Shown: positions 1,270 through 16,949 of the stretch, in pieces
Layout of the letters: the number at the start of each line of letters is the position of its first letter
Position numbering within the stretch: the first letter of the stretch is position 1
IMG/VR virus record: IMGVR_UViG_2534681675_000024
DNA length: 16,949 nt
Reading direction: 5' to 3' (one strand)
Source: a virus
Lineage: Duplodnaviria; Heunggongvirae; Uroviricota; Caudoviricetes
The notes under the pieces: generated by a model
What the model saw: the letters and a program-made list of their open reading frames with translations, nothing else
The model's database searches: none
What the model was told of the DNA's origin: nothing
Program-made: the position numbers and the translations under genes

Positions 1270-1916
1270 ACAACATCTTGAGAAAATCGCCAATCGAACG
1301 GCTTTGTTCATCTGTATCGATTACCCCTCATGAAATGGCTGTGGCCTTGGCTGGCCTAAACCCATCTATGCGCATTAGCGATGTGCCTGAGGAAAATTTC
1401 GAATATGTCGATTTTGTCAGAACTCATCTTGCCAGAGCTATCAAGGTGTACAGAGGTGAAAAAACTAGTAAAGACGAGCCTTGCCATGCCCTTGATATTT
1501 TCTTAGCTTCTTACCCATTTATTGACACAAATACACCAGAAATAATTGTTCAGAAAATATCAGAAGCGATTGATGATTTGCGTGGCACCAAGGGCTGGGA
1601 AGAAAAAGCCCGAAACCTTGGAGGACTCCAGTTAGTAAACTACATCAAAGAAACCAACCGCAGCGGACGTGGGCAGCATAGAAAGCAGGATGAGGAAAAC
1701 GGGACAATGAAAATGATGGGGTTGATAGTACATCTGCTGATAAAAAAATCAGGCTCATCTTCCTACATCCAAAATGGGAAACCTAATCGCACAGCTATAT
1801 ACCGTGACATAGAAACCTTAATCAAGGATGAAGGGATATCCCATAAAGGAATAGCAAAAGCCACATTCCTAGAAAAAATCTCACGGGCTTTATTAGCTGT
1901 CCACGATCTCGACTAA
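1266..1916 (+). CDS. Hypothetical protein (216 aa), AT-rich orphan gene between int and alpA
   Basis: ORF begins at GTG 1266, overlapping the int stop (ATGTGA), with an SD-like CGGAGG about 5 nt upstream. The first in-frame ATG is at 1335, so the start is uncertain. I recognise no domain. The gene is visibly more AT-rich than int and is followed by a long AT-rich intergenic region. Confidence 0.6.
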   Translation: MNNILRKSPIERLCSSVSITPHEMAVALAGLNPSMRISDVPEENFEYVDFVRTHLARAIKVYRGEKTSKDEPCHALDIFLASYPFIDTNTPEIIVQKISEAIDDLRGTKGWEEKARNLGGLQLVNYIKETNRSGRGQHRKQDEENGTMKMMGLIVHLLIKKSGSSSYIQNGKPNRTAIYRDIETLIKDEGISHKGIAKATFLEKISRALLAVHDLD

Positions 1917-2273
1917 TCACTTTTCACGCCCCTCCAAAGCAATGGCGGGGCATTACCTGTTTACCCATCTCCACCAGCATAGATAATTCTCGCCCAGCTA
2001 TTGCTATATCTGTTCGGCTTAGTTCATCTGTAATCACCCCATCTCTAAAAGATACGCCAGCTATCATTAGCCATTTTAAGCCATCATGAGCCATTATAAA
2101 CCGACTCAACCAATTGAATAATAAAAGATAAAAAGAAATGTAAAAACATGATGAATGACGATGAAAGATATAACTCTTTGATAAAACAATGATTTTTTAA
2201 ACTGGTAACTAATTGAAAATAAAGAAAATAATTATCCCACCTGCATTTGCAATCTTTCAGTGGATCGGCATTT

Positions 2274-2306
2274 TTTCAATAGATTTATAATTTCTTTCAA
2301 TAGATT
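2274..2306 (+). promoter_or_regulatory. Candidate promoter/operator upstream of alpA: TATAAT flanked by two TTTCAATAGATT direct repeats
   Basis: The 12-bp motif TTTCAATAGATT occurs at 2274-2285 and 2295-2306 (21-bp spacing), bracketing a perfect TATAAT hexamer at 2286-2291, about 95 bp upstream of the alpA ATG. No good -35 hexamer is evident. Confidence 0.4.
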
Positions 2307-2386
2307 CTAGTCTTAATAGAAATACTGTATGGGCAACCACTAAACTTTAAGTAACTTCATGAGCTATCAGAGAGGTTACTAGAGAT

Positions 2387-2605
2387 ATGACAGCACACAA
2401 GCCAGCATCATCAGCTATCCCAACAACTGGATACATCCGTCGCTTTCGCATGCCGGAATTGCTAGGTGTTTCACTGCCTACTATTGATAGATGGGTTAAA
2501 AATGGCACTCTTCCACGCCCAGTGAAGCTAACAGATAACGTGACTGCGTTTGATGCGGTGGAAATTAATAACTGGCTGGCAGAACGCCGCGGGAAGGTGG
2601 CCTGA
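2387..2605 (+). CDS. alpA: AlpA-family helix-turn-helix transcriptional regulator (phage excisionase/activator-like)
   Basis: 72-aa ORF with the AlpA-type HTH segment RMPELLGVSLPTIDRWVKNGTLPRPVKL. Its stop overlaps the next gene's start (TGATG). Position just downstream of int is typical of AlpA in P4-like and PICI-like elements. Confidence 0.85.
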   Translation: MTAHKPASSAIPTTGYIRRFRMPELLGVSLPTIDRWVKNGTLPRPVKLTDNVTAFDAVEINNWLAERRGKVA

Positions 2606-3036
2606 TGGAAAAGAAAAACCGCCCATTACAGGCGGCTAATTCAGATATTCGCGTATCTGATATTACGCCCCTTACAAAATCCCTTCAAGCACCAAAGCGC
2701 ACACCGAAAAAGCATCGTGCCCGAGTCTATATGCTGCGTACTGGTATAGAGGGATGGACAGAAAATGACATTCTTCGCTACTGCCGTCTGTCTTCTGGTC
2801 GTAACTATGCAACAGAGTTAGAACGCCAGCTTGGAATCACTCTGGAGCGTATCGACGAAAAGAATCCTGATGGTATCGGAACACACCTTCGCTACCGTTT
2901 CTCCTGCCGTGGTGATGTTCTGAAAGTGATCACTCATGTTAACCATCTTGCGAGCATAAATGATCACAACGGACTTTCTCAGCAGGAAATTGCCGACATT
3001 CTGAAACTCTACCCGGACGCGTTTAACGCCGCCTAA
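2605..3036 (+). CDS. Hypothetical protein (143 aa), basic N-terminus, co-transcribed with alpA
   Basis: Start is translationally coupled to the alpA stop. Composition looks protein-like and the N-terminal region is basic (KRTPKKHRARVY). No recognisable domain. Confidence 0.65.
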   Translation: MEKKNRPLQAANSDIRVSDITPLTKSLQAPKRTPKKHRARVYMLRTGIEGWTENDILRYCRLSSGRNYATELERQLGITLERIDEKNPDGIGTHLRYRFSCRGDVLKVITHVNHLASINDHNGLSQQEIADILKLYPDAFNAA

Positions 3037-3048
3037 CGGAGACTGAAA

Positions 3049-3882
3049 ATGAACATCGAAAAAAGCAGATTAATTTCTGAGGCCGCCCCTCATCTGAACG
3101 CCTCTCTGGGCACAATTAACGGTAATGAATTTGCCGCAATTGTCCCGGTTATTCCTGGTCATATCGGTGGGCGTGAAACCAATATTGTTAGCGCAAAAGC
3201 GTTACACAAAGCGTTGGGCGTGGGAAAAGACTTCTCTACATGGATCACTGATCGCATCTCTGAATATGACTTCACCATTGGGCACGATTACTCAGTCCAT
3301 AAAACAATTTCCCCAAATTTGGGGAAAAGCCCGAATGGCGCGGCTTACAGCAAGATTAAGCACTCTGGCAGACCCGGCAAAGACTATCTGTTAAGTGTCG
3401 GAATGGCGAAAGAACTGGCAATGATCGAACGCAATGATCAGGGTCGCGCTATCCGTCGTTATTTCATCCAGTGCGAGGAAGAATTACAGCGTACCGTGCC
3501 TGAAATCGCCGCCCGCTATCGTCGCCAGCTAAAAGCCCGTATCAGTGCCGCAAACAACTTTAAGCCAATGTGCGATGCGCTGAACATGGCCCGTGCCGAG
3601 CAGGGGAAAACGACGCAGCAACACCACTACACAAACGAGAGCAATATGATTTCTCGTATCGTTCTTGGTGGGCTAACTGCTAAGCAGTGGGCGCGGATAA
3701 ATGGCTATTCTGGCGAACCTCGCGACCATATGAACGCAGAACAGCTTGAACACCTCTCATATCTCGAAAGCACCAATATCACGTTAATTGATATGGGCAT
3801 GGAATATGAGCAGCGCAAAGGAGAACTCACCCGCCTGTCGCAACGCTGGCTCGCCAAGCGTCTGGAGGCGGTCCATGTTTAA
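3049..3882 (+). CDS. Phage antirepressor-like protein (AntA/AntB-type N-terminal domain, Rha/KilAC-like C-terminal region)
   Basis: 277-aa ORF with GGAG about 8 nt upstream. The N-terminal segment SAKALHKALGVGKDFSTWITDRISEYDFTIGHDY matches the AntA-type antirepressor signature. The central segment YLLSVGMAKELAMIERNDQGRAIRRYFIQCEE resembles KilAC/Rha-type regulatory domains. Confidence 0.78.
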   Translation: MNIEKSRLISEAAPHLNASLGTINGNEFAAIVPVIPGHIGGRETNIVSAKALHKALGVGKDFSTWITDRISEYDFTIGHDYSVHKTISPNLGKSPNGAAYSKIKHSGRPGKDYLLSVGMAKELAMIERNDQGRAIRRYFIQCEEELQRTVPEIAARYRRQLKARISAANNFKPMCDALNMARAEQGKTTQQHHYTNESNMISRIVLGGLTAKQWARINGYSGEPRDHMNAEQLEHLSYLESTNITLIDMGMEYEQRKGELTRLSQRWLAKRLEAVHV

Positions 3883-4054
3883 GCCGACAGGAACACCACA
3901 ACCACAAAAACGCTACAAAGATGCCCACGGAGCACTCGTTACTGTCGAAAGCGTGTCTCACAACCGAGTGACGTTTTATCGCGACGGGTATCAATCGCCA
4001 TGCGTACAACCGCTGGCGCGTTTCATGAAGGAGTTCGCGGAGGTTAACCAATGA
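3875..4054 (+). CDS. Small hypothetical protein (59 aa)
   Basis: ATG at 3875 overlaps the antirepressor stop (ATGTTTAA), and its own stop overlaps the ATG at 4051. No domain recognised. Confidence 0.45.
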   Translation: MFKPTGTPQPQKRYKDAHGALVTVESVSHNRVTFYRDGYQSPCVQPLARFMKEFAEVNQ

Positions 4055-5082
4055 TACCCGTCCAGAAGAAGACATTTTCACTGGCTGGTATGTCTCCAAA
4101 ATCCAGCAATATGACGGCAAAGTCAGGCATTAATACAGCAGATACAAGCAAAGTTTATCATTTGCTGGTGGTCGGAACGGATGCCTTAACCATGCCAGAA
4201 ATCTCGGGCGATGATATTAGCGTTGAGAAGGTCAGCGGCTGCGCCAGAGAATTTCTGGTCGTAGATGACCTGTTCTGCTCGCGTAGTGACTCCACAAAAA
4301 TCTTCGTCCACGCGCGTGACGTTAACGAAATGAGCGCGATGTACTGTGCTTCTGGTGCTTCCAATAGCGAGTTTTCGGAGTCCATAAAAAAGAGCTTGCC
4401 GTTATGCGGCAACACGGTTTATGGTTATAAGGCACCTCATAAAACGGGTGCCGGGATTGGCCTCCCGCTGGAGTTATCGGCGATACATGACGCGCCAGCG
4501 TCTTTTTTTGTATCGGCGCACACGCACACCTTATCAATGGTGGGCTGTATGGGGCTACCTTCGGGTAGGCTGGTTTCCGATAACGCCAGTAAGGCCAACT
4601 CCGTACAGTCCACCGCCAGCAAGATTGGTCTCTTCTGCGGTGGTTATAACAAGCCAACGTTATCGGAGGATGCCACATGCTGGCTACTACCCCTACCCAA
4701 AAACCGCAATTTATCTGGATTATCGCCGCAGTTCGCCGCGATTGCCCGACAATTACCGCCAAAATTCATCATATTGCTGCCGAGTCTGAACGCGATGCTC
4801 GCCGTTCTCTGGTGCGCGATCACGTCTGCTTTTTTGCTGGTCGTATCCGCATGGAGGTGGCACATGATTAAAACCTACGATGTGCATATGGACCCCCTCG
4901 AACGCACAAGCCAGATCATCACACTGACAGAAGTGATTAATGACATTCTGGTGAGCAACTCTCCCTCACGAGACGAAAAACTGAAGGCGTTACTCGCGAT
5001 ATTGGATCTCGCCGTTCGTGACGTTCATTTCCTGCTGGAAGGTGGCGAAATGCCAGTAAAACGGGGGGCAACCAATGAATAA
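4051..5082 (+). CDS. Uncertain long ORF (343 codons); possibly several short genes or a partly non-coding leader
   Basis: The frame is open for 343 codons and has a good SD (GGAGG, 7 nt before ATG 4051). However, the first ~270 residues are unusually Ser/Cys/Trp-rich, the frame contains a terminator-like hairpin plus T7 run (4489-4509), and two internal starts have strong SDs: 4677 in another frame (GGAGGA) and 4864 in-frame (GGAGGTGG). Confidence 0.35.
4489..4509 (+). terminator. Terminator-like hairpin (GACGC-GCCA-GCGTC) followed by T7
   Basis: A 5-bp GC stem with a 4-nt loop is followed immediately by TTTTTTT. The stem is short, so function is uncertain. It lies inside the dubious 4051-5082 ORF. 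Confidence 0.3.
4864..5082 (+). CDS. Small hypothetical protein (72 aa), alternative in-frame start within the 4051-5082 ORF
   Basis: A strong SD (GGAGGTGG, 4853-4860) sits 3 nt before ATG 4864. The downstream sequence has ordinary helical-protein composition, and its stop overlaps the next start (ATGAATAA at 5075). Confidence 0.4.
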   Translation: MIKTYDVHMDPLERTSQIITLTEVINDILVSNSPSRDEKLKALLAILDLAVRDVHFLLEGGEMPVKRGATNE

Positions 5083-5269
5083 CTCAATTAATACCCCTCG
5101 CCTTACGTCCGCACTTCAATTAATCGAGCAAGCAGCGGCTGTCCTGGTTGCTGTCAGTCTTTCGGCTGAAGAAATGGACGCTACTGATGTCGTGGATGCG
5201 ATTAAAGCGTGCTCATCTTTGGTTAACGATGCCCGTGCAGAGCTGGTAATTCTTGGGGGTGAAAAATGA
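5075..5269 (+). CDS. Small hypothetical protein (64 aa)
   Basis: G-rich SD-like stretch upstream. Overlaps the upstream stop and the downstream start (ATGA at 5266). Ala/Leu-rich helical composition. Confidence 0.55.
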   Translation: MNNSINTPRLTSALQLIEQAAAVLVAVSLSAEEMDATDVVDAIKACSSLVNDARAELVILGGEK

Positions 5270-5529
5270 ATATCAACTTAATTTATCGTCATCCGTGTGA
5301 GCTGGAAATTGAATCATTGCTGAGCCGTGAAGAGCCATATCCAGACACATTCACTCTTGCAGATCGCACGACTGAACGGCTTACCAGAGCGCGCACAGGT
5401 CTGGTTCATGTGATGAATGAGATTCTTCCATCGGTGGGAGGGGAACAGGCGACAGTAATCACTAGCTGGCTACAAAAAGTTACCTCTCTGATAGATATCA
5501 GTTTAATCGATGCGGAGAGTGCGAAATGA
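5266..5529 (+). CDS. Small hypothetical protein (87 aa)
   Basis: SD GGGGGTGA before ATG 5266; ATGA overlaps at both ends (translational coupling). Confidence 0.6.
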   Translation: MNINLIYRHPCELEIESLLSREEPYPDTFTLADRTTERLTRARTGLVHVMNEILPSVGGEQATVITSWLQKVTSLIDISLIDAESAK

Positions 5530-5747
5530 CCAACATCCAGCTCATCGAAGCGCAATGTCGCATCGAACAGGTTCAGACTGTTTTAGGGTTCTGGCTTGAA
5601 GGGGCCAGCCCCAGCAACAGAGACAAGTTAATGATTGGCGCGGTTATGTCACTGCTCAATGGCGTACCAGAAGCTATTCAGGAAGCGGACGAATTGTTGG
5701 GCAAATATGAGTTACAGAATCATTCAGGCGAGGCGAAACATGAATAA
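5526..5747 (+). CDS. Small hypothetical protein (73 aa)
   Basis: Coupled to its neighbours at both ends (ATGA overlap upstream, ATGAATAA overlap downstream). N-terminus (MTNIQLIEAQ) resembles that of the 5075 ORF ([20 protein letters not shown]), suggesting possible paralogy. Confidence 0.6.
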   Translation: MTNIQLIEAQCRIEQVQTVLGFWLEGASPSNRDKLMIGAVMSLLNGVPEAIQEADELLGKYELQNHSGEAKHE

Positions 5748-6342
5748 TTTCTTAACATTCCATGCAGAAGCAACGCCTGACGGCGTAAACATCATGCACC
5801 GCAGCAACGATGGCATGACAGAACGCGTTGAGACCGTCTCATATATTGATGCCGTAAATCGTCTGGATGCCGGGGATTATGACGATAAACCAGATGAAGG
5901 CATGTTTATACATCTCGCTATTGCCAGTGGCGGCAACCAGGGATATTTCGATTACACATCACAGCATCACGTGATTATGTGGCGCTGGCTGATAGCAACA
6001 GCATTCATCAATGAAATGAGAAAGGAAAACGGCACCGTCAGCATTATTGATGACAGTGGCAATCATTCCGTGGTTTCTGTTTATTCCAATGGCATCGTCG
6101 CCATGCCGCTGTATCCAGTAGCAGAGCGCCTCGCTATGGCAAACAACATTGAGGGCGCAATGATCGAGAAATATGGTGTTGATGTCGGAACAAAGAATGC
6201 CATCATTTTTTACAGCAACATGTTCGATGTCGAACAGGGAGCACTCACTTCGTTTGGGCGAGAAGTGCTTGCCGATCTTCACAACAGCTTTATTGCCGAA
6301 CTAAACGAAAACGGCATCCCAGAAGCACCAGTGACGCACTAA
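5740..6342 (+). CDS. Hypothetical protein (200 aa), immediately upstream of the primase
   Basis: ATG 5740 overlaps the upstream stop (ATGAATAA). The ORF track's longer 5635 start is probably an over-extension. No domain recognised. Confidence 0.65.
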   Translation: MNNFLTFHAEATPDGVNIMHRSNDGMTERVETVSYIDAVNRLDAGDYDDKPDEGMFIHLAIASGGNQGYFDYTSQHHVIMWRWLIATAFINEMRKENGTVSIIDDSGNHSVVSVYSNGIVAMPLYPVAERLAMANNIEGAMIEKYGVDVGTKNAIIFYSNMFDVEQGALTSFGREVLADLHNSFIAELNENGIPEAPVTH

Positions 6343-6354
6343 ACGGGGGCCAGA

Positions 6355-8706
6355 ATGCGAAACATTGATCTTATCCGTCAGGTTATCAGTGCGTCTGAAA
6401 ACAACTGGCCTCATGTGCTGGGCTGTCTGAACATAAATGTCCCTGACTCTCCGCGCCGTCATGCTCCCTGCCCTGCATGTGGGGGCAAAGATCGATTCCG
6501 GTTCGACGACAACGGGCGCGGTAGCTTCATCTGTAATCAGTGCGGCGCTGGTGATGGGCTGGATTTAATTAAACGCGTAAATAACTGCGACACAACAGAG
6601 GCGGCGCTTCTTGCCGCTGATGTTCTGGGTATTGATTACCGGACAACGGAAACACCAGAAGCCACCAGCCAGAAACGGGAACAACTGGAAACCGAGCGCC
6701 AGCGACGCGAACAGGAGCGCCTGAAAAGGGCAGAGAAGGACGAACAACAAAGACGGGATACGTTTTCCCGTCAGTTTGATGACATGCGCAGAAAGGCTGT
6801 AAACGGCAAATCTGATTATCTGGTTGCGAAAGGGGTAGGTGATTTTACATTCCCCGTGTTGCCAGATGGATCTCTGTTGCTGGCGCTGGTGGATAAATCC
6901 GGCGCAGTCACAGCAGCACAGACTATTACCTCACATGGTGAAAAAAGACTCCTGACAGGTTCAGCAAAGCGGGGGGCGTATCACGCCATAAACGCACAGA
7001 AACGACCTCACAGCATCATAATTGCTGAGGGTGTGGCTACCGCCCTGTCGTGCCATTTAATTCGCCCTGACGCAATGACAGTGGCAGCAATCGACGCTGG
7101 CAACCTGTTGCCAGTAGCGGAAGTCATGCGCAGAACATATCCACAGGCACAAATCATCATTGCCGCAGATAACGATCACCAGCAAGGAAACTCCGAAAGT
7201 GGAGGGATCAACACGGGGAAAGATGCCGCAGAGAGGGCCGCTATTTCCGTAGCTGGCTGGGTGTCTCTGCCACCGACTGACTATAAAGCCGACTGGAACG
7301 ACTATCACCAACAACACGGGCTGGCGGCAGCCACAGCAGCATTTAAAGATTCGATGTACCAGCCACGGGGGAAAGGGGCGCAGGTGAAAAATCACAAACA
7401 GTCAGTCGGGGCGCTTAATGAGATCAGTTCTGGCGAGGTGTTAAGCGATGATGAAATTGCTGTCCTCAAAGAAATCAACCGGACGTTTACGCATGTCACC
7501 ATCGGCGGGAAACACAAGGTGGTGTCGCTAAAGCCTTCTCAAACCGGCGGTGTATCGCACGTTTTCGAGGATTTATCACAATTTCAGCATTATTTTCATC
7601 ATAAACCGAGAGTCGCCAGAAAGCTGGCGGGATCGGCGTGGCTGTCATGGAGTGGGAAGAACTACAAGCCAGGAGGCGTAGGATTTTATCCAGTACCAGA
7701 CAAATGCCCTGACGATGTTTTTAATCTGTATGAGGGGCTGGCACTGGAACCAATTGAAGGAGATTGCACGGTATACCTTAATCACCTGTTGCAGGTTGTC
7801 TGTGCCGGTAATGAAGAGGCATACCAATATCTTATCCAGTGGATGGCGCACATTATCCAAAAGCCTGATGAAAAACCGTCCGTGGCAATCGTGATGAAAT
7901 CTGTCCCGGGCACAGGGAAAGGCACAACGGTTAAACCGCTGCTGCAAATACTGGGGCAGTACGCCGCCCACATTAACGGGGCGGGACATATTTCAGGGCG
8001 CTTCAATTCAATACTTGCTAACAAGCTACTGGTATTTGCTGACGAAGTGACGATCCACAAGCCGTCTGAAGCTGACAGACTTAAAGCGATTATTAGCGAA
8101 CCGACGTTTAACCTTGAGCGCAAGGGAATTGATGCTGAACCAATGCCGAATTTTGCCCGGTTGATATTTGCCAGTAACAGCACACAGGTATTACAGGCGG
8201 GGATAAGAGAGCGCCGCTATCTCGTGCTTGAGCCATCTCCTGAAAAAGCACAGAGCCGGGAGTATTTTGATCGGCTGTACAGTTGGCTTAATGATGGCGG
8301 TGCCGCAAAGTTGCTTTGGCATCTTAAAGGGGTGGATCTCTCAGGTTTTGACCCTCAACGAGCGCCACAGACCGATGCCTTACGTGAAGAAATCTTGCTG
8401 GGGCTGTCTGGCGTTGAATTGTTTCTTTATGGCGAGCTAATCAATGAACCTCCGTTTAATGGCGAAGTCCGTTTGTTTGCAAAGGATATGGTTAGTCGAT
8501 TTGTAGCGTGGTCGCTTGAGCGTGGGGAAAAGCTTAAAGAGCCAGCAGCCAGATCACTACTGGGTAAATCACTTGCACAAATGGGGCTGGTGAAGCATGG
8601 AAGACCAGACCGAGGGAATGGCGTGTTCTACGAACTACCAGAGGTCGGAGTTCTACAGGCTGCGTTTGCCCGTCTGATCGGTATGGGGGGTTATGATGTT
8701 TTTTAA
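6355..8706 (+). CDS. Replicative primase-helicase (zinc-finger + Toprim primase domain, C-terminal P-loop NTPase; P4 alpha / D5-like)
   Basis: 783-aa ORF with a G-rich SD. It has an N-terminal zinc-binding pair (CPACGG ... CNQCG), a Toprim-like acidic core (IIIAEGVATALS and AADNDHQQGN), and a C-terminal Walker A-like loop (VPGTGKGTT) with a Walker B-like hhhhDE (LLVFADEV). Size is close to P4 alpha. Confidence 0.9.
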   Translation: MRNIDLIRQVISASENNWPHVLGCLNINVPDSPRRHAPCPACGGKDRFRFDDNGRGSFICNQCGAGDGLDLIKRVNNCDTTEAALLAADVLGIDYRTTETPEATSQKREQLETERQRREQERLKRAEKDEQQRRDTFSRQFDDMRRKAVNGKSDYLVAKGVGDFTFPVLPDGSLLLALVDKSGAVTAAQTITSHGEKRLLTGSAKRGAYHAINAQKRPHSIIIAEGVATALSCHLIRPDAMTVAAIDAGNLLPVAEVMRRTYPQAQIIIAADNDHQQGNSESGGINTGKDAAERAAISVAGWVSLPPTDYKADWNDYHQQHGLAAATAAFKDSMYQPRGKGAQVKNHKQSVGALNEISSGEVLSDDEIAVLKEINRTFTHVTIGGKHKVVSLKPSQTGGVSHVFEDLSQFQHYFHHKPRVARKLAGSAWLSWSGKNYKPGGVGFYPVPDKCPDDVFNLYEGLALEPIEGDCTVYLNHLLQVVCAGNEEAYQYLIQWMAHIIQKPDEKPSVAIVMKSVPGTGKGTTVKPLLQILGQYAAHINGAGHISGRFNSILANKLLVFADEVTIHKPSEADRLKAIISEPTFNLERKGIDAEPMPNFARLIFASNSTQVLQAGIRERRYLVLEPSPEKAQSREYFDRLYSWLNDGGAAKLLWHLKGVDLSGFDPQRAPQTDALREEILLGLSGVELFLYGELINEPPFNGEVRLFAKDMVSRFVAWSLERGEKLKEPAARSLLGKSLAQMGLVKHGRPDRGNGVFYELPEVGVLQAAFARLIGMGGYDVF

Positions 8707-8730
8707 TATAGTCTTTTTACAAGAAGATCG

Positions 8731-8840
8731 TTTTTACCTGTACCACCTATACCACTTTGCTAATTCAGTATTAAAAACAGTGCGTTATAGTGGTACAGGT
8801 CAATATCTTACCTATACCAGACCTGTACCACCTATACCAT
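8731..8840. repeat. Iteron-like repeat cluster 1, immediately 3' of the primase-helicase gene (candidate ori)
   Basis: CCTGTACCACCTATACCA occurs at 8737-8754 and 8822-8839. An inverted copy TGGTACAGGT lies at 8791-8800 and an extra CCTATACCA at 8811-8819. The same core family recurs in cluster 2. Confidence 0.6.
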
Positions 8841-8882
8841 TAACAAACGCATTTCTTCTGGCTGGCTGAGAGGAAACAACCA

Positions 8883-9113
8883 ATGATGAGCACACCATTT
8901 TACAAAGTGCGCCAGTTAGCTTCTTCCTCTGGCTGGCAGCTGCGGTTTGAGGGGCGTTCAGACTGGCTACCCATTGCGGCATGGGCGAATGTTGAAATGT
9001 GTATTGACGGCGATACCGTTGAAATCATTATTCCCTGCGTGGCAAGTCGGGACGGCTGTATAGAGCCAACAGATATGGCAGCAGAAATCAGAGAGGTAAA
9101 ACATGAACAATAA
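8883..9113 (+). CDS. Small hypothetical protein (76 aa)
   Basis: SD GAGAGGA upstream of ATG 8883; its stop overlaps the next gene's start. No domain recognised. Confidence 0.6.
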   Translation: MMSTPFYKVRQLASSSGWQLRFEGRSDWLPIAAWANVEMCIDGDTVEIIIPCVASRDGCIEPTDMAAEIREVKHEQ

Positions 9114-9840
9114 CTATTGCATACCGCAGGGAATGACCAGAACGGAGCGCGAAGAATTAAAAAGTTTCGCTACACAGTGCGGGAATGCTGGCGACATCCA
9201 AAGTCTGGAACGCACTTTAATTATGATTGCGCACTGGATGCGTCAGGGGCAAAGGGTTTCATTTACTGAATATGCCAGCCAGTGGACAGAGGCACAGCGC
9301 GAACGGAGCGACGGTAATCACTCAACACCCGAAATGGCGAAGCAATGGCCTTTCAGTGGTAAACGCTGTATCAGTCCCGGTGGTTCAGATTATTACCCTG
9401 CTGGTGTGGGAGATGAGCCATGTTGTGACGAGACTGAAATCCGCCACGCAGTGACAGTAATTACCGCTGAATACCCACAATTTAACCTTGACGGACTGGC
9501 GCTCCACAACCGGAATGCGGACTGGGAAAACCCGCTTGATAACCCGTCATTTATCGTATCGGCGAAAAGCTGCCTGAGATGGATCAGAGACAACGGGATG
9601 AGTAATGCCCAGATTGAGAGCTTCCCGCAGGATAACCCCACATCTGACACGTTGAAGCATGAAGTGGAGCGATATAACCAGATAAACCACCAGCACAGTG
9701 ATCACCCGCACTATATCCCCAACGGAGCATTTATTGCGGCGATGGTGGCAAGCGGCTACAAGGTTAAGCCAGCGGGAAGAATGAACGCATTTTTCAATAT
9801 TTCAAAAAAGGGATTATGTGCTGCTATGGGTAAAAATTAA
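9103..9840 (+). CDS. Hypothetical protein (245 aa)
   Basis: SD GAGAGG before ATG 9103, coupled to the upstream gene. Protein-like composition, no recognisable domain. Confidence 0.7.
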   Translation: MNNNYCIPQGMTRTEREELKSFATQCGNAGDIQSLERTLIMIAHWMRQGQRVSFTEYASQWTEAQRERSDGNHSTPEMAKQWPFSGKRCISPGGSDYYPAGVGDEPCCDETEIRHAVTVITAEYPQFNLDGLALHNRNADWENPLDNPSFIVSAKSCLRWIRDNGMSNAQIESFPQDNPTSDTLKHEVERYNQINHQHSDHPHYIPNGAFIAAMVASGYKVKPAGRMNAFFNISKKGLCAAMGKN

Positions 9841-9845
9841 ATAAA

Positions 9846-9949
9846 TGGTACAGGTCTGTACAGGTGGGGAGAGGTCATTTTTACCCACCTGTACCACCTA
9901 CAGGCCGCGTCACACAAGGGTTTGTGACATGGTGGTACAGGTGGTACAG
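9846..9949. repeat. Iteron-like repeat cluster 2 (same family as cluster 1) plus a GTCACA-N8-TGTGAC palindrome
   Basis: TGGTACAGGT at 9846-9855, CTGTACAGGTGG at 9856-9867, ACCTGTACCACCTA at 9887-9900, and tandem inverted GGTGGTACAGGTGGTACAG at 9931-9949. A palindrome GTCACACAAGGGTTTGTGAC lies at 9909-9928. TTTTTACC precedes the repeat in both clusters. Confidence 0.6.
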
Positions 9950-10314
9950 CAAAAACAGCGATTTTCTTTATAAGGTATGTTTTGCTCATCTGGCAGGCGG
10001 AGGTATTCGCTGCGGTTTGGCACATAGCCCAGAACAGCAAAGAGTTTTACGAGACTTTTGTAAAATCCAGTGTACAAGGGCGTGACGTTTTTGAAGGAGA
10101 GACCTACGAAATTTTCGTAGTTCAAAAAATAGCCTCTGAGATGTTGTTATGCCTGTTCAGCAAACCATCCGCATAGCTGATCGCGAATCAAATTACCAAT
10201 GGAGCCAGAAGCAAGGGCAGAACTGGAAAGCGCCTGCCGTGAAGAGTAATGCGACATCGTAAATATAGTTTTTAGAGTCCATAAAAAACCTGTCAAAACC
10301 TGACATACAGAACG

Positions 10315-10347
10315 ATGCCACCAGCTACTGAGCGGTGGCATTTTTTT
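10315..10347 (+). terminator. Rho-independent terminator
   Basis: An 8-bp stem (ATGCCACC / GGTGGCAT) with an 11-nt loop is followed by TTTTTTT. Confidence 0.7.
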
Positions 10348-10391
10348 GTGCTATTTGTTTCATATTTTGCAATCACAATGATGAATGTTGC

Positions 10392-10433
10392 GTTTTATGA
10401 AACTATAATGACTGTTGTTTTATACAGTTATAA
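10392..10433 (+). promoter_or_regulatory. Candidate promoter/operator for the 10443-14192 operon
   Basis: Two imperfect 17-bp direct repeats (GTTTTATGAAACTATAA at 10392-10408 and GTTTTATACAGTTATAA at 10417-10433) overlap a TATAAT hexamer at 10404-10409. No good -35 is seen. Confidence 0.3.
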
Positions 10434-10442
10434 GGGGGCGTT

Positions 10443-10616
10443 ATGGCTATTTCAGTAAAGCCAGTATTGATAAGTGAGAAGCAAATGGAAGCGATAAAGA
10501 AAATTCAGGAGGAGCAGCGTAAAAAATCAGAGGTAGGAGTTGCGCCAACGATCCACGAAATTGCTCGGGGATTAATGGATAAGGCGCTGGCTTACACTTT
10601 AACTGGACGTGGGTAA
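10443..10616 (+). CDS. Small hypothetical protein (57 aa), first gene of a three-gene operon
   Basis: Not in the supplied ORF track (below its length threshold). ATG 10443 is preceded by a strong SD (AAGGGGG). The stop at 10614-10616 lies 4 nt before the next ATG (10621). Helical composition; a regulatory role is only a guess. Confidence 0.5.
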
Positions 10617-10620
10617 ATTT

Positions 10621-12087
10621 ATGGCTACTTGGCAACAAGGAATCAACTCAGGCGGTTTTCTGGCTGGCATCGGTACGCAAAATGAGAATGCGCCAAAGGC
10701 AAGCGACATTAACGCAACGCTTGGTCTGATCCGCGAAAACAATGAACTGGCTCGCTCAGGTGCAAATAACGTTGGTCTGACCGCGTTACGTGGTCTGGCT
10801 GGAGTTGCTGATATTTATAAGCAGGAACAGCAACAGAAAGCGATTAATGCGTTCAATAAGGTTCACGCTGATGCATGGGCTTCTGGTGATCCATCGGGAC
10901 TATTTAAGTTTGCCCAGGAAAATCCAGCGTTTGTTGCACAGGTACAACAGGCGTTTTCTGGTCTTAATGATCAGCAACGCAACGATATGGGCGATTTAGC
11001 CATGAGGGCTAACGTCGCTCTTTCTCAGGGACCGGAAGCCTACAGTAAATTCATTACTGACAACAAGGACAGGTTAAATCGCGTTGGTGCTAATGCTGAC
11101 TGGATGATTCAGACAGGTATCCAGAATCCAGAGCAGCTATCACACATGCTGACTACTATGTCTCTCGGTGCGCTTGGACCAGAAAAGGCGTTTGCTGTTC
11201 AGGATAAGATGGTTGGTCGTGAGATTGACCGAGGCCAGCTGGCAGAGACAATCCGCAGCAATAAGGCTGGAGAGGCACTTCAGGCGAGAGGGCAGGATAT
11301 TAGCCGAGCAAATGCGTTAACGTCAGCATATGCACCAACAGCCGCAATGCAGAATTACAATCAGTACGCGCAAATGTTAAAGGCGGACCCAGAGGGGGCG
11401 GCGGCATTTGCGGCAGCGGCTGGAATTAATACAAACGCCAAAAAATTAATGAGTGTTAGAGAAAACGATGATGGCACTGTCACAAAATACTACACAGACG
11501 GAAGTGAAGAGCAGGGAAAACTAAACCAGCCAATATCTGGAGATGGGTTTCGTCCAATAGCTTTGCCAACAGCCCAAAAGATCATGGAAAAGTCGCCAGA
11601 AGGGGCTAAAAAAGCTGCTGGATTTGCATACAGGGTTAGGGATGCTCTTGATTCAATAGATACACTGAAAGACCAGCTTAGCCCACAGCGAGTGGCGATC
11701 ATTAATAATGCTTTGGGTAATGGGACGCTGGCTAACTTAACGCTCAGCCCAGCAGAGCAGCAATACGTTGTTAATGCTAATGACGCAATAATGGCAATAC
11801 TCCGTCAGGAAACAGGGGCATCTATCCTACCAGCTGAAATGTCCAAATATTATCAAATGTATTTCCCTCAGCCTGGTGATTCCACAAAAACCATTGATAC
11901 CAAGCGCCGGAAGATGGAAAACCAGTTCAATTCGCTGAAAGCTGCTTCTGGTCGAGCTTATGATGCTTTGCGGGTTATTTCAGCAGTTGACAGAGGAACT
12001 TCTTCTTCGTCGCAGACATTGCCGCAATCTGAGCAGGTATCACAGCCAGCAGCCAGCAGTAATTTTTCTTCACTATGGGGTGATTAA
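10621..12087 (+). CDS. Large hypothetical protein (488 aa), Cys-free, Ala/Gln/Asn/Gly-rich, predicted mostly alpha-helical
   Basis: ATG 10621 chosen over the track's 10609. No Cys, few aromatics, Q/A-rich low-complexity stretches, and no enzymatic motif I can identify. Its stop overlaps the next start (TAATG). Confidence 0.8.
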
Positions 12088-14192
12088 TGGCTAAAGCATG
12101 GAAAGATGTTATCGCTTCTCCACAGTATCAGGCGTTAGCACCAGAACAAAAAGCGCAGGCTCAGGAGCAATACTTCAATGAAGTCGTGGCCCCGCAAGCC
12201 GGAGAAAGTGTAGAGCAGGCTAAGCAGGCTTTTTATGCTGCCTATCCACTACCATCAACGAATGAAATAAACCGATCCCAATCAGCAACTCAAAATATTC
12301 AACATACATCATCTGATAATTCTCTTGCGTCAGGGTATGCAAAGTTAGCTACTCAGCAAAGAGAGGGGCTTGAGCGTTCAGCAGAACAGGGAGCCAGTCT
12401 TGGGGCTGCGATGCGCGATGCTATAACAGGCGAAAGCCGAATGACTCCAGAGATGGAGAGACTGCAAAATGTCGACCTTGCCCCAGAGTTAACCTCACTC
12501 AGCATGGATGCTCTAAAAGCTCGATGGTCTCAACTTTTCGGCTCTGACGCATCTCAGGAAAAGATTCTTCAGAGCATGGGAGCGAAATTAAGGCAGGATG
12601 AGAAGGGTAACACTATCGTTTCCCTGCCATCCGGTGATTATGCTCTGAACAAGCCGGGTTTATCGCCGCAAGACGTGGCATCGTTTCTGGCTAATGCGCT
12701 GGCGTTTACACCAGCGGGCAGGGCTGGAACGGTGCTTGGTGCCATAGGAAAATCAGCAGCTACAGATTTAGCACTACAGGGAGCCACCAGCCTTGCTGGT
12801 GGAGAAGATATTGATCCGTTACAAACGGTAATTTCTGCTGGCATTGGTGGTATTGGTAAGGGGCTGGAAAATACAGCGAGTGCGGTTTCGAGGGCTGTTC
12901 GTGGTGATATGTCGCCTGAAGCAAAGGCTGCTGTCGACTTTGCATCGGAAAGAAATCTGCCGTTAATGACCAGTGACATGCTGAAAGATAAAACCTTTAT
13001 GCAGAGTCAGGCTCAGACATTAGGCGAAAGAGTTCCTTTTTTTGGAACCGGTAAGAATCGGCTGAATCAACAACAAGCACGAGAAAATTTAGTCAGAACA
13101 TTTAGCGATGGTCTGGGGGGAATTTCAGATAAACAGCTTTATGAGTCTGCGACTAAAGGGCAGCAAAAATTCATTGAGGCAGCAGGAAAGCGATATAACC
13201 GCATAATTGACGCTATGGGGGATACCCCTGTCGATCTCTCAAACACGGTAAAAACTATCGACAATCAGATTGCCGTGTTAAGCCGCCCTGGCAAATCTCA
13301 GGATAGAGCCGCGGTAAAAGTCTTGCAGCAATTTAAAGACGATATCACCAGCGGACCAAATGACCTGCGTCTGGCGAGGGAAAACAGAACCGATCTTCGA
13401 AAGCGATTTATAGCGTCATCTGACACTGTTGATAAAGATACGCTCCAGAAAGCCAGCGATATTATCTACAAGGCATATACGGCGGATATGAAAAAAGCCG
13501 TAGCCAAAAATCTTGGAGCAGACGAAGCCATTAATATGGCAAGGGTTGATCGCTCATGGTCTAAATTCAATGACATGATGGGAAGAACGCGCGTTCAAAA
13601 GGCAATAGCCAGCGGCAAGGCCACGCCTGAGGATGTAACAAAACTCGTTTTTAGCCAAAGCCCATCAGAACGTTCTCAGCTTTACAGGCTTCTGGATGAC
13701 AATGGTAGGCAAAACGCACGAGCAGCTATAGTTCAGAATGCTGTAGATAAGGCGACTGATCCGTCTGGAAATATCAGTGTTGAGAAGTTTATTAATGCGT
13801 TACACCGGAACAGGAAGCAATCAGCAACTTTCTTTAAAGGCGTACATGGAAAGGAACTGGACGGCGTTATTAAATACCTCAACGATACAAGACACGCGGC
13901 AAAAGCGAACGTTCAAAACTTAAATGGTCAGCAGCTTTATGGATTGTTAGTTGGTGGTGGCATCATAAACGCAGCAGTATTAGCGGGGATGCTAAAAACG
14001 GCTGCGTTTGTTGTTCCTGCTGCTGGTGCCGTAGGCGGAGCAGCGAAGGCATACGAAAGCCCTGTTATACGAAATGCCTTGTTACGTCTGGCAAATACGC
14101 CAAAAGGTAGCACAGCATATGACAGAGCGATCAGTACGGTCACACAATCGCTCACCAGAGTCGCACAGGCATCACAAAAAGAATCTCAATAA
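12087..14192 (+). CDS. Large hypothetical protein (701 aa), Cys-free, helical, with a C-terminal Gly/Ala-rich hydrophobic hairpin
   Basis: Long uninterrupted ORF coupled to the upstream gene. The segment LYGLLVGGGIINAAVLAGMLKTAAFVVPAAGAVGGAAKAY (about nt 13934-14056) looks like a membrane-insertion hairpin. GIGKG and GAIGKS do not fit true Walker A spacing. Confidence 0.85.
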   Translation: MAKAWKDVIASPQYQALAPEQKAQAQEQYFNEVVAPQAGESVEQAKQAFYAAYPLPSTNEINRSQSATQNIQHTSSDNSLASGYAKLATQQREGLERSAEQGASLGAAMRDAITGESRMTPEMERLQNVDLAPELTSLSMDALKARWSQLFGSDASQEKILQSMGAKLRQDEKGNTIVSLPSGDYALNKPGLSPQDVASFLANALAFTPAGRAGTVLGAIGKSAATDLALQGATSLAGGEDIDPLQTVISAGIGGIGKGLENTASAVSRAVRGDMSPEAKAAVDFASERNLPLMTSDMLKDKTFMQSQAQTLGERVPFFGTGKNRLNQQQARENLVRTFSDGLGGISDKQLYESATKGQQKFIEAAGKRYNRIIDAMGDTPVDLSNTVKTIDNQIAVLSRPGKSQDRAAVKVLQQFKDDITSGPNDLRLARENRTDLRKRFIASSDTVDKDTLQKASDIIYKAYTADMKKAVAKNLGADEAINMARVDRSWSKFNDMMGRTRVQKAIASGKATPEDVTKLVFSQSPSERSQLYRLLDDNGRQNARAAIVQNAVDKATDPSGNISVEKFINALHRNRKQSATFFKGVHGKELDGVIKYLNDTRHAAKANVQNLNGQQLYGLLVGGGIINAAVLAGMLKTAAFVVPAAGAVGGAAKAYESPVIRNALLRLANTPKGSTAYDRAISTVTQSLTRVAQASQKESQ

Positions 14193-14211
14193 CTGGTTAG
14201 CCATGGATGGC

Positions 14212-14826
14212 TTAAATATCTCTGCTGTCTCCATTAGGAAATAAAAGATAATATGGATTTGCCTTTCTTGCTCTCCTTGCTTCACCTGGATACCTGTTAG
14301 TCAGTAGCTTGCATAATGAGCAGAGAACAACACTCAAGAAAATTCCGAATGAGAAGATCAATATCTCACCAAAAATCAATGGCGATATTAAATTTTCAGG
14401 ATTTAATGATAAGTCAATGTTAAAAACATATTGAGCAATACCAGTAAGTATCAATAATATAATCCCTATGGAATACATTGCTGTTTCCCAAACATCAGAC
14501 AGTCTATTTTTGAATTTTTCGCTGGAGTAGTAGTTTGTTATAAAGTCAGAAAAATCACTCTCATATGCATCATCTTTAGGTGATGTTAGAAATCCTCTGT
14601 CTCTCCATACCTTCTCCCAATTAGTCGATTCTTTTTTTAAGGAAAAATAAATATGTATTGCCAAAAGGATAGCCAAAATTGGTGTTAGCTCTAAAAAATA
14701 GAATGTTATGGAATAAATAATACTGCCATGTTCAAACTCATCTGGGACTATCATGTATGCACAAAAATAAATTGAAAAGTACACCATGCAGATAGTTAGC
14801 AATTCTTTAGTATCTTTTCTGCTCAC
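14212..14826 (-). CDS. Integral membrane protein (about 204 aa, four predicted TM helices), strongly AT-rich
   Basis: Four hydrophobic stretches of about 20 residues each, with a basic C-terminal tail (RRARK). GTG start at 14826 is preceded by SD AAGGGGG; an alternative ATG is at 14787. The gene is markedly AT-rich relative to its neighbours and converges on the 701-aa gene with only 19 bp between stops. Confidence 0.8.
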   Translation of the reverse strand: MSRKDTKELLTICMVYFSIYFCAYMIVPDEFEHGSIIYSITFYFLELTPILAILLAIHIYFSLKKESTNWEKVWRDRGFLTSPKDDAYESDFSDFITNYYSSEKFKNRLSDVWETAMYSIGIILLILTGIAQYVFNIDLSLNPENLISPLIFGEILIFSFGIFLSVVLCSLCKLLTNRYPGEARRARKANPYYLLFPNGDSRDI

Positions 14827-15007
14827 ACCAACCCCCTTTAGCGTTGTTTAGAATGGCAATCATCATATATCCAAGACATGGCATTTGGTACATAGCTTGG
14901 GTCGGGATTTCAAATCCGCTCCCAGTTGATGGGGCCGTTACATTACGCGCATATCCGCTTTATGTGAAACAGGAAGATTTTTCTGATATCACTGCCACAG
15001 CAAACAC

Positions 15008-15036
15008 CAATTTCGTGACCAGTACGCGCGCGAGGG
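15008..15036 (+). repeat. Repeat family copy 1 (CAATTTCGTGACCAGTACGCGCGCGAGGG)
   Basis: About 29 nt with a CGCGCGCG core; matches copy 4 (16904-16933) at roughly 23 of 29 positions. Confidence 0.6.
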
Positions 15037-15041
15037 GTATC

Positions 15042-15063
15042 AGTTGCAAAAAATTTTGCAACT
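15042..15063. repeat. Near-perfect palindrome AGTTGCAAAAAATTTTGCAACT between repeat copies 1 and 2
   Basis: 9-bp arms GTTGCAAAA / TTTTGCAAC. A related palindrome GTGCAAATTTGCAC lies at 16746-16759. Confidence 0.5.
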
Positions 15064-15065
15064 AC

Positions 15066-15094
15066 GTCCGACCAGTACGCGCACGATGGAGGGG
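15066..15094 (+). repeat. Repeat family copy 2 (GACCAGTACGCGCACGATGGAGGGG)
   Basis: Shares GACCAGTACGCGC-CGA---GGGG with copy 1. Confidence 0.55.
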
Positions 15095-15295
15095 AGTACC
15101 ATAAAACTGTTCTCTACATGAGACAGAGTGGTGGTGATGTGTTGATTATCGGCGTATATGCGCACAGGACGCGCTATGACGATGTTTTATGCGGGTACAC
15201 CAATCACATGTATCTGGTGTGATAAATCGCGTTACATGACATCTCATGTTGTGCTGGTGATTATCACGACGTTCTGAATCTGGCCTTTGCCTGAT

Positions 15296-15322
15296 ATTTT
15301 GCGACAAGTACGCGCGCGTAGC
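15296..15322 (+). repeat. Repeat family copy 3 (TTTTGCGACAAGTACGCGCGCGTAGC)
   Basis: Same GAC-AGTACGCGCGCG core. A weaker partial copy (CATTTTGTGACCAATGCG) lies at about 15349-15366. Confidence 0.55.
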
Positions 15323-15346
15323 ATCAACAGCATACACATTGGATAT

Positions 15347-15547
15347 TCATTTTGTGACCAATGCGATAAGTAGCGGGATAAGAATTGATAAAATCAACAG
15401 GACGATGATCCACTTTTGATTCTCGTCCATCTTATCTGCTAGGCGACGCTCCATTCCGTGCATATCACCGCGAATGGCAATCATCTCATTGCGAACATCC
15501 GAGAAGTGGTTGGCTTGATGTTCAATGTGTGGCGTTCTGCCTTTCAT
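15347..15547 (-). CDS. Small C-terminally anchored membrane protein (66 aa), XhlA/holin-like topology
   Basis: ATG at 15547 with SD GAGGA about 7 nt upstream. Polar, charged N-terminal half followed by a single C-terminal TM helix (WIIVLLILSILIPLLIALV). The family call is tentative. Confidence 0.6.
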   Translation of the reverse strand: MKGRTPHIEHQANHFSDVRNEMIAIRGDMHGMERRLADKMDENQKWIIVLLILSILIPLLIALVTK

Positions 15548-15626
15548 GTCTGATCCTCACCTATCGTCACCACCTGCTGGTGTATAAAGGTATTAGCCCA
15601 AGCAGCTTTCCAATGGGCACTCATGT

Positions 15627-16082
15627 TTATACGCTGACCTTACAATCAATCACCGCTTTTAACTTTTCAGCATTGCTTCCCTGACGCTTCCACGCGCTGT
15701 AAATATCTTTATCCCACGCTTTACCAGCTTTTGTTTGATAGCCTGCTTCATTGATCCGTTCAGCTATCACACGCCCATTATCAAATCCCTGTTGGATGGT
15801 ATCGGCAATGATCTTTATAACTGCCGTTTCGTTATATGGTTTTGGTGGGATGTTCGGCTTTCCGGCAATAAGCGACGCAGCGGCTTTTTCCATGCGCTCC
15901 ACCAGCCCAAGCATTCGTGAATCAATAGACTTTTCCGGCTGCCCCAGCTTCATGCGAATCGCATCAACAAGCCAAGAGGTTTTATCTCCTCCAGAAGCGA
16001 GAACAGACCGATTAAACTCATCCTGCAATTCAGATGGGATGCGGAACGCGATCAGATTAGATTTGCTCATTGCAAAGACCAT
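15627..16082 (-). CDS. Ribbon-helix-helix (Arc/CopG-like) DNA-binding protein with a C-terminal recombinase-like helical domain (151 aa)
   Basis: The N-terminus has a classic RHH pattern (LIAFRIPSELQDEFNRSVLASGGDKTSWLVDAIRMKL). The C-terminal segment GRVIAERINEAGYQTKAGKAWDKDIYSAWKR resembles the recombinase-domain motif of serine recombinases, but there is no catalytic domain. Start could be 16082 or 16070; no clear SD. Confidence 0.7.
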   Translation of the reverse strand: MVFAMSKSNLIAFRIPSELQDEFNRSVLASGGDKTSWLVDAIRMKLGQPEKSIDSRMLGLVERMEKAAASLIAGKPNIPPKPYNETAVIKIIADTIQQGFDNGRVIAERINEAGYQTKAGKAWDKDIYSAWKRQGSNAEKLKAVIDCKVSV

Positions 16083-16183
16083 ATCAGTGAGTAATATCCA
16101 TACAGTATACCACTGTATAACACTGTTATACGCTCAAATATCAGCCAGAAAATAACAGACCAATCACAAATCTATCGCTGTGT

Positions 16184-16306
16184 TGTTGGTTCAGAGCTGG
16201 GCTGTGTTGGTTCAAAATGAGTTGATGTTGGTTCAATATTTTAGAAAAAACACAATAAAAACAACGCTCTTTACAAATTGAACCAACTGAACCAACTGAA
16301 CCAACA
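16184..16306. promoter_or_regulatory. Operator/iteron array: three TGTTGGTTCA direct repeats at 21-bp spacing plus three tandem inverted TGAACCAAC copies
   Basis: Direct copies at 16184-16193, 16205-16214 and 16226-16235. After an AT-rich spacer, TGAACCAAC repeats sit at 16279-16287, 16288-16296 and 16297-16305. A TATAAT hexamer at 16323-16328 and SD GAGAGG precede the perC-like ATG. Confidence 0.7.
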
Positions 16307-16341
16307 CCTTTTTGCTTATCTATATAATCTGAGAGGCAGAA

Positions 16342-16629
16342 ATGATAAAGGACAGGAAAGCTGAAGAGCTGGAGTCAAAAGGGCTATACCGGAGAGCTGC
16401 CGCGCGATGGGCAGAAGTCATGATGCTGGCAGATGGCGATAAAGAACGTGAACATGCAGCAAACAGACGCTCTGAATGTATCCGTAAGGCGGCACGCCCA
16501 CCAGCAACTACAGACAGATTCGGAGATTTAAGACAGGCAGTTAAGCGGACTCATTCGGCTCTTGGTATGGATGAGGAAGCGAGAGGGTACTTCAGGCGTT
16601 ATCGCGATAAAGATTGCCAGAGACAGTAA
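16342..16629 (+). CDS. PerC-family transcriptional regulator-like protein (95 aa)
   Basis: Size and the N-terminal motif ESKGLYRRAAARWAEVM resemble PerC/Pch-family regulators known from EPEC/EHEC plasmids and prophages. TATAAT and an SD lie upstream. Confidence 0.7.
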   Translation: MIKDRKAEELESKGLYRRAAARWAEVMMLADGDKEREHAANRRSECIRKAARPPATTDRFGDLRQAVKRTHSALGMDEEARGYFRRYRDKDCQRQ

Positions 16630-16903
16630 TGCTCTCTCTGTTTTGGCAAATTACCCCTCACTTTGAAGGGATCGGAGCTATAAAAATGGTGTTATCCGGC
16701 TTCCTCAAATTGAGGATTGTGGAAGAATCAATGGGTTAGGTCATCGTGCAAATTTGCACTCTGCCAGCCAACGCAATTTCTCGTTGGCGGAAATATCAGG
16801 TATTTACTGAACGAACGGTCTACCAGTCTGTTCAGTTACCAGTTGCACATGGCTGTTTCATGTGAGAACGGAGGTTTTTTTCGGACATCGCTATTGGGTA
16901 CAG

Positions 16904-16933
16904 CAATTTCACGAGCAATACGCGCGCGCAGGA
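16904..16933 (+). repeat. Repeat family copy 4 (CAATTTCACGAGCAATACGCGCGCGCAGG)
   Basis: Close match to copy 1 at 15008-15036. It sits at the window edge, where a short minus-strand ORF appears to start at 16949. Confidence 0.55.
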
Positions 16934-16949
16934 CAACAAGCCTGAACAT

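Follow-up and report, generated by a model that had tools for sequence, protein, structure and literature searches.

The DNA analysed here is the 16,949-nucleotide stretch of IMG/VR record IMGVR_UViG_2534681675_000024, referred to below as the window. Two genes near its right end converge: one encodes a protein of 701 amino acids (aa) with a Gly/Ala-rich hydrophobic hairpin near its C-terminus, and the other, on the opposite strand, encodes a 204-aa membrane protein with four predicted helices. A preliminary description, made from the letters alone, had compared this pair, as an analogy only, with a pore-forming colicin and its immunity protein. We propose instead, with a probability of roughly 0.8, that the pair consists of an ejection protein of the P22 gp16 type and a divergent member of the SieA family of superinfection-exclusion proteins, carried on an island resembling EcCIMP1, a phage-inducible chromosomal island (PICI), and that it is not a toxin with its antidote. 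The toxin/immunity reading was rejected because both proteins belong to the P22 gene 16/sieA pair. The features at the center of this proposal are the following.

12087 to 14192, plus strand: homologue of P22 gene 16, 701 aa, an ejection protein and the cytoplasmic-membrane part of the DNA conduit (phrog_770, BLASTP, PF26808 homologues)
13935 to 14054, plus strand: Gly/Ala-rich hydrophobic hairpin of gp16, aa 617-656, LYGLLVGGG...AAKAY (hydropathy, homologue alignment)
14212 to 14826, minus strand: divergent SieA-family superinfection-exclusion protein, 204 aa, four predicted transmembrane helices (BLASTP, phrog_7745, profile search, AlphaFold)

Over aa 19-699 the 701-aa protein matched phrog_770 (E 2.8e-160), which is annotated as 'DNA transfer protein'. 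BLASTP aligned it with the gp16 of HS1 (30% identity, E 4e-48), and it was also aligned with that of P22. PF26808 (Phage_P22_gp16) was present in all but one of its 120 best homologues, the exception being a truncated chimeric match; a Pfam scan of the protein itself gave no match, and the Pfam version used appears to be without PF26808. The gene is located directly 3' of a gene 20 homologue, and the product has the C-terminal motifs of P22 gp16 (GQ...YES..RNALLRLANT). Gene 16 was intact in all six island loci, with dN/dS of 0.08-0.24 among island copies, and is under purifying selection. In P22, the one system to which this evidence applies, gp16 is packaged in the virion, ejected, and forms a channel in the cytoplasmic membrane (10.64898/2026.09.03.749273). 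The preliminary description had itself named phage ejection proteins as a second comparator beside colicins. A search of PDB sequences with the protein returned chance matches only. The AlphaFold model had a moderate mean confidence (pLDDT, the predicted local distance difference test score, of 60.5), with a confident helical core at 323-606 and pLDDT below 50 at 607-657. Weak alpha-helical Foldseek matches of this model (JetABC; ClyA-type toxins, E 0.5-1.3, TM ~0.1) were dismissed as noise.

The 204-aa open reading frame (ORF) starts with GTG, has AAAGGGGG ahead of the start, and is as AT-rich as had been described, with a GC content of 32.7% against 47% in its neighbors; RefSeq labels the product a hypothetical protein. 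BLASTP aligned it with the SieA of HS1 at 34% identity across 118 aa (E 2e-9), and it weakly matched phrog_7745, a SieA-like PHROG (E 2e-4). HS1 SieA (E. coli HS EcHS_A0321, type B) has been found experimentally to exclude P22-like phages, and a cytoplasmic motif of the SieA family, FxRYPxEAxxFNK, has been published (Leavitt et al., PMC10883804). The window form of this motif is TNRYPGEARRARK at aa 176-188, which agrees with the consensus at six of its nine specified positions and preserves the RYPGEA core in full. The 204-aa protein, P22 SieA and HS1 SieA have a further motif, YSSE..NRxSD, in common, so that the window protein carries the pair YSSE..NRLSD (aa 100-111) and NRYPGEARRARK (aa 177-188). 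Among 1.84 billion representative proteins, a profile search matched only 43, mostly of about 160-200 aa, and those that were aligned agreed across the same core.

Topology prediction, a check suggested in the preliminary description, gave four helices with both termini inside. Four hydropathy peaks were found, and the AlphaFold model (mean pLDDT 81) has long helices at 3-30, 36-66, 105-141 and 151-176. Counts of Lys plus Arg along the loops are 3/0/9/0/6. The predicted topology, N-in/C-in with a cytoplasmic motif, fits that published for type B SieA. The predicted periplasmic loops are only 8 and 13 residues long, which fits an encounter inside the membrane.

The window protein is 23% identical to P22 SieA (type A, BK000583) and is predicted to have one helix more, four against three; the two share the motifs YSxE..NRxxD and RYPGEA...K. 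With HS1 SieA (type B) it shares the extra N-terminal helix, which makes four in total, and a length of about 194-212 aa. HS1 SieA is its best pairwise match, yet is only about 30% identical overall, and the window subtype differs from it by a conserved loop motif of its own, W(R/K)(D/E)RGF, and a tail ending in YYLLFPNGD. The window SieA may constitute a fourth type by sequence or branch deeply within type B. When 50,697 phage records were searched by tblastn with the 204-aa protein, none matched even at E 10, which argues that isolated phages are without this SieA subtype. NCBIfam and PADLOC scans, with ten proteins submitted to each, gave no match, nor did a Foldseek search of the SieA model against BFVD.

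The order of genes 20, 16 and sieA at the locus is that of P22. In P22 (BK000583), as in the window, genes 20 and 16 are followed by a convergent sieA after a gap of about 20 bp. In P22, HS1 and the window alike the two genes converge, and the stops of gene 16 and sieA are 22, 21 and 19 bp apart, respectively (14193-14211 in the window). Gene 9, mnt, arc and ant follow in P22 but not in the window, the host element being a phage in the former and an island in the latter. In P22-like prophages or contigs, the canonical sieA slot between genes 16 and 9 is occupied by relatives of the 204-aa protein. They were seen in Citrobacter freundii (50% identical) and in metagenomic contigs (38-39% and 31% identity), each facing gene 16, with mnt, arc, ant and the tailspike gene on the other side. 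The 204-aa gene is likewise convergent to gene 16, but its element is a PICI without gene 9. Because P22, HS1 and these relatives have the same layout, the convergent pairing is the ancestral P22 arrangement. The tail-to-tail order would have been inherited from a P22 late operon (...7-20-16) followed on the other strand by sieA, a moron expressed by the lysogen.

Pore-forming colicins A, E1 and Ia are also encoded with a convergent gene for a multi-pass inner-membrane immunity protein. The window pair resembles them in having a convergent multi-pass inner-membrane protein that, conceptually, neutralizes an incoming membrane-inserting hairpin. By analogy, the 701-aa protein would be a pore-forming toxin that inserts its hairpin into the inner membrane, and the four-helix protein would protect the producer. 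Convergent orientation, a short gap, a hydrophobic helical hairpin and the absence of Cys all suit such an arrangement, which we nevertheless consider extremely improbable. Neither a colicin pore family nor an immunity family was found by Pfam, and NCBIfam likewise gave no immunity family for the 204-aa protein. Foldseek comparison of the moderately confident gp16 model with the PDB yielded nothing at E <= 0.001, and the 50 best matches listed include no colicin. Receptor and translocation domains had been reported as absent, and homology to gp16 along the full length of the protein leaves no room in which they could be hidden. An identical layout exists in P22, where the genes encode an ejection protein and SieA. 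The 701-aa protein is indeed free of Cys, but so are the gp16 proteins of P22 and HS1, and this property loses its value as a hint of a colicin. Cells that receive gp16 from P22 particles without gp20 are neither killed nor slowed in their growth (bioRxiv 10.64898/2026.09.03.749273). Finally, P22 SieA excludes P22 itself (PMC10883804), and the neighboring gp16 is therefore a target rather than a protected partner. The window pair shows no similarity to colicins in sequence or fold and lacks receptor and translocation domains, a lysis gene and a toxin; it would shield against incoming virions. The idea of a functional pairing survives in the form of target and blocker, with the escape sites described below aligning beside and inside the hairpin, while its toxin-and-immunity form does not.

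The hairpin itself was confirmed at aa 617-656, although its first base is 13935 and not 13934 as first given. It is 47% Gly plus Ala, contains two charged residues, and is the sole stretch of the 701-aa protein in which the 19-residue Kyte-Doolittle mean exceeds 1.6 (maximum 1.79). In 30 of 30 aligned gp16 homologues the corresponding segment is the most hydrophobic stretch, and across this alignment it is set in a conserved frame of GQ and YES..RNALLRLANTPKGS. P22 mutants that escape SieA carry the gp16 changes G532W and P546S, the latter in 8/8 original mutants (Leavitt et al., PMC10883804). G532 of P22 aligns with the invariant G614 of the window gp16, three residues ahead of the hairpin, and P546 aligns with K637 at the hairpin center. 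The window hairpin has no counterpart of this Pro and is far more hydrophobic than that of P22 (Kyte-Doolittle mean of 1.79 versus less than 1.1). It carries a 9-residue insertion, YGLLVGGGI, relative to P22 and HS1, and eight extra hydrophobic residues, AAVLAGML, relative to most of the 30 aligned homologues; at the sequence level it is a subtype unlike most of the gp16 family. The pLDDT values below 50 over 607-657 mean that the hairpin is not predicted as buried in a soluble fold, the outcome that would have spoken against the pairing idea, and it is probably the likeliest membrane-embedded segment of gp16. That escape sites align with the conserved hairpin shows where in gp16 an interaction with SieA should be sought, and a functional coupling of the hairpin with the 204-aa membrane protein is thereby supported indirectly.

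We hypothesize that the pair acts at the stage of DNA delivery. Proteins of the gp16 type would be packed in the capsid and expelled before the DNA, and gp16 together with gp20 would build a conduit across the periplasm and the cytoplasmic membrane. SieA, if expressed by the resident element and located in the inner membrane as its four helices predict, would block delivery of incoming P22-like DNA by interfering with the gp16/gp20 conduit inside the membrane. Neutralization would then be aimed at incoming virions and not at a product of the same cell. Helper phages of the P22 type would mobilize such islands, an island would supply gp20 and gp16 of its own for packaging into the particles in which it travels, and the host would gain exclusion of P22-like phages from the island SieA.

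The whole window (1-16949) is an integrative element of about 17 kb, located between yicC and dinD, with 98% identity to an island of strain 2016C-3878. Pfam identified backbone genes for a P4-type integrase, AlpA, AntA, Ash, a primase-helicase (Toprim/DUF5906) and PerC, and found no capsid, tail or lysis genes among the window proteins. Between EcCIMP1 and the window, 5988 bases (6.0 kb) are alignable at 83-96% identity, with 87-96% given as a second range, and the two have in common int, alpA, AntA, Ash, primase, a small ORF, ejection-protein genes and PerC. They differ in attachment site (yicC/dinD in the window, tRNA-Thr in EcCIMP1), in integrase, and in gp16, which has 701 aa in the window and 906 aa with a transglycosylase domain in EcCIMP1. 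The genes for gp14 and gp7 are present in EcCIMP1 and not in the window, and gene 16 is followed by a SieA homologue in the window and by a lipoprotein gene in EcCIMP1. As judged from sequence, the window is an EcCIMP1-like PICI of E. coli and not a phage. EcCIMP1 is a PICI of E. coli MP1 that is excised and transferred only with Kapi1, a relative of P22; it adds to superinfection immunity by an unexplained mechanism, and PADLOC and DefenseFinder were negative (Pick et al., PMC11773190). Of 5426 complete E. coli genomes, 398 have the window allele of gene 16 and 102 have the SieA-like gene. The gene 16 allele was carried by no isolated phage, the nearest having 66.8% identity. Ten distinct E. 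coli contexts of the 204-aa protein were examined, and each of them is a PICI.

The SieA-like gene occupies what appears as a slot for exchangeable cargo, with the following landmarks.

14199 to 14212, no strand assigned: palindrome AGCCATGGATGGCT in the gap between the two genes, its last base being the first base of the reverse stop codon
14823 to 15325, no strand assigned: conserved right flank of the cargo slot, abutting the SieA-like start codon, with 95.9% identity to sister locus U12A, where the slot gene differs
23620 to 24009 in locus L009 and 13632 to 14330 in locus L012: the cargo slot elsewhere

The four-helix protein on the opposite strand, the 19-bp gap and the palindrome within it are all present as described. 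About 3-4% of 33-nt segments, whether random or native, contain an inverted repeat of 6 bp, and the palindrome alone is therefore only mildly unusual and weak evidence. The hairpin at the end of gene 16 is preserved in sister loci (U12A and L010), even with a different gene downstream; in U12A a 7-bp stem is followed by TTTTT, and the window hairpin is without a T-run. AGCCATGGATGGCT is probably the 3'-end hairpin of the gene 20-16 transcript. On the other side, 14823-15325 probably carries the promoter and ribosome-binding site of the SieA-like gene, and positions 14899-15325 (about 430 bp, without an annotated gene) are 96.5% identical to EcCIMP1. A sequence resembling a tRNA T-arm, GGGATTTCAAATCCGCTCCC, was observed near 14910-14935, and a tRNA scan of the window with ARAGORN found none.

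Between these limits, the gene 16 hairpin on the left and the conserved flank from 14823 on the right, the window has the SieA homologue, U12A and E. coli EC15 have an unrelated 129-aa four-helix multi-pass membrane protein, and EcCIMP1 has a 232-aa lipoprotein (LAGC lipobox). Unrelated envelope genes follow gene 16 in phage N7 as well as in sister islands. Since the slot genes all encode envelope proteins, they may provide alternative exclusion functions.

Several observations weigh against our interpretation. The 204-aa protein has low identity to SieA proteins that have been tested (23-34%), and three of the nine specified motif positions differ. EcCIMP1, the sole island of this kind tested for superinfection immunity, has the lipoprotein gene after gene 16 and no SieA homologue, and its immunity depends on the helper prophage (PMC11773190). 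In truncation work by Perez et al. (cited in PMC10883804), membrane association of P22 gp16 in vitro did not require residues 476-609; membrane anchoring may therefore not be the role of the hairpin, on which the moderate gp16 model is uninformative. Lastly, the gp14 and gp7 genes of sister islands are missing from the window (10591-11203), so that the window island cannot provide the full set of ejection proteins.

The first of these points could mean that the 204-aa gene is a SieA-related membrane moron whose function has changed, for example to another envelope role, or been lost, and whose link to gene 16 is no more than the inherited P22 order. The unrelated envelope genes in the same slot of sister islands and of phage N7 are in line with such a history, and substitutions in the 204-aa gene are too few for selection on it to be measured. 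Both motifs and the four-helix architecture are, however, kept across relatives of 31-50% identity, and SieA proteins of types A and B, when tested, behaved alike despite an identity of only 24% (PMC10883804). We regard a changed or lost function as unlikely and retain the assignment of the gene as a SieA.

The gene 16/sieA pair itself is textbook P22 biology, and the toxin/immunity lead is closed. The SieA subtype has no name in PADLOC or NCBIfam. Moreover, in every case examined by Leavitt et al. sieA was found only in P22-like prophages (PMC10883804), in contrast to the PICI location of the window subtype in each of its ten E. coli contexts. In the literature that could be searched, we found no paper linking ejection proteins or sieA with satellites or PICIs, and those listed for sieA together with such elements do not mention sieA; an earlier mention of islands with ejection genes in the two P22-like prophage comparisons of Casjens is possible. 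The window SieA is a candidate to explain the superinfection immunity reported for EcCIMP1-type islands, and the slot genes together (the SieA homologue, the 129-aa four-helix protein and the lipoprotein) are concrete candidates for island superinfection immunity.

Gene 16 is the last gene of an ejection-protein operon, of which the upstream features are listed here.

10392 to 10433, plus strand: two 17-nt direct repeats, GTTTTATGAAACTATAA and GTTTTATACAGTTATAA, spanning a TATAAT hexamer, 5' of a small ORF (repeat search, sequence)
10443 to 10616, plus strand: conserved small ORF of 57 aa, first of the module; the same ORF (53 aa) heads gp14-gp7-gp20-gp16 in sister islands and EcCIMP1
10621 to 12087, plus strand: homologue of P22 gene 20, 492 aa, a mosaic periplasmic ejection/conduit protein (Pfam Inj_translocase, E 3.6e-118)

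The repeats at 10392-10433 could tentatively be a promoter/operator of the operon; a scan for consensus promoters called none for either operon. A terminator-like hairpin with a T-run was also observed at 10318-10346, before the ejection-protein operon. Family scans gave no match for the 57-aa ORF, which by eye resembles a ribbon-helix-helix regulator; the possibility that it is a remnant of gp7 was rejected, as no similarity was found. The gene 20 product is 89% identical to P22 gp20 over aa 1-238, and in its C-terminal half, where the SieA-escape changes of P22 gp20 fall, no similarity to P22 was detectable. The start codon of gene 16 opens with base 12087, the final base of the gene 20 ORF.

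In sister islands the small conserved ORF is followed by the full P22 block gp14 (DUF2824)-gp7-gp20-gp16 (gp14 and gp7 at 14548-16247 of L010), and relative to these islands the 5' half of the window gene 20 is a different, P22-like allele. The absence of gp14 and gp7 from the window might indicate that 20-16-sieA is what remains of a P22-like prophage, brought into the island by recombination, and that it is decaying and has no present function. A degraded island in EC15, which still has gene 16 beside an integrase fragment, could be read in the same way. Decay is very unlikely given that gene 16 is intact in every island locus and constrained in its dN/dS, and that its allele is present in several hundred complete E. 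coli genomes and matches no isolated phage closely. In addition, each of the two forms, with four genes or with two, was seen at two attachment sites and together with two types of primase, and the module is therefore recurrent and not the product of one deletion. The degraded island of EC15 (L011 8193-11106) is reduced to an integrase fragment, fused to a partial gene that carries an acyltransferase annotation, but retains an intact 701-aa gene 16 with the 129-aa membrane gene.

A further extension of our proposal, which we offer as doubtful, is that the island re-equips helper capsids with its own gp20 and gp16, whose hairpin would be insensitive to SieA, while its own SieA excludes the helper and P22-like phages, in the manner of a lock and key. 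If this were true, island particles would enter cells that are closed to the phage, including lysogens of future helpers. It would constitute a satellite strategy not described so far and would explain the ejection-protein genes on islands that parasitize P22-like phages. Covariation, with SieA and hairpin subtypes matched to each other, was looked for and not found, which leaves the lock-and-key reading unsupported: the contig with the 38-39% identical SieA relative has an ordinary hairpin, and in U12A the same hairpin allele adjoins a non-SieA gene.

Other observations concern the remainder of the island. The interval between the slot and PerC (15347-16082) is variable in sister islands (L013-L022). 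The window version consists of ORFs of 66 and 151 aa, and sister islands have Abi_2, Peptidase_M78 with a 125-aa protein, or proteins of 318 and 145 aa; this variability is the pattern of a defense hotspot. Rfam identified isrK at 4432-4508 (64 bits) and C4 antisense RNA at 4533-4620 (77 bits), within the Ash-family ORF call at 4051-5082, and 4432-4620 may be an RNA immunity region of the P1/P4 type. Direct and inverted repeats of GGTACAGG(T) lie at 9846-9950, directly past the primase region, and may represent an origin.

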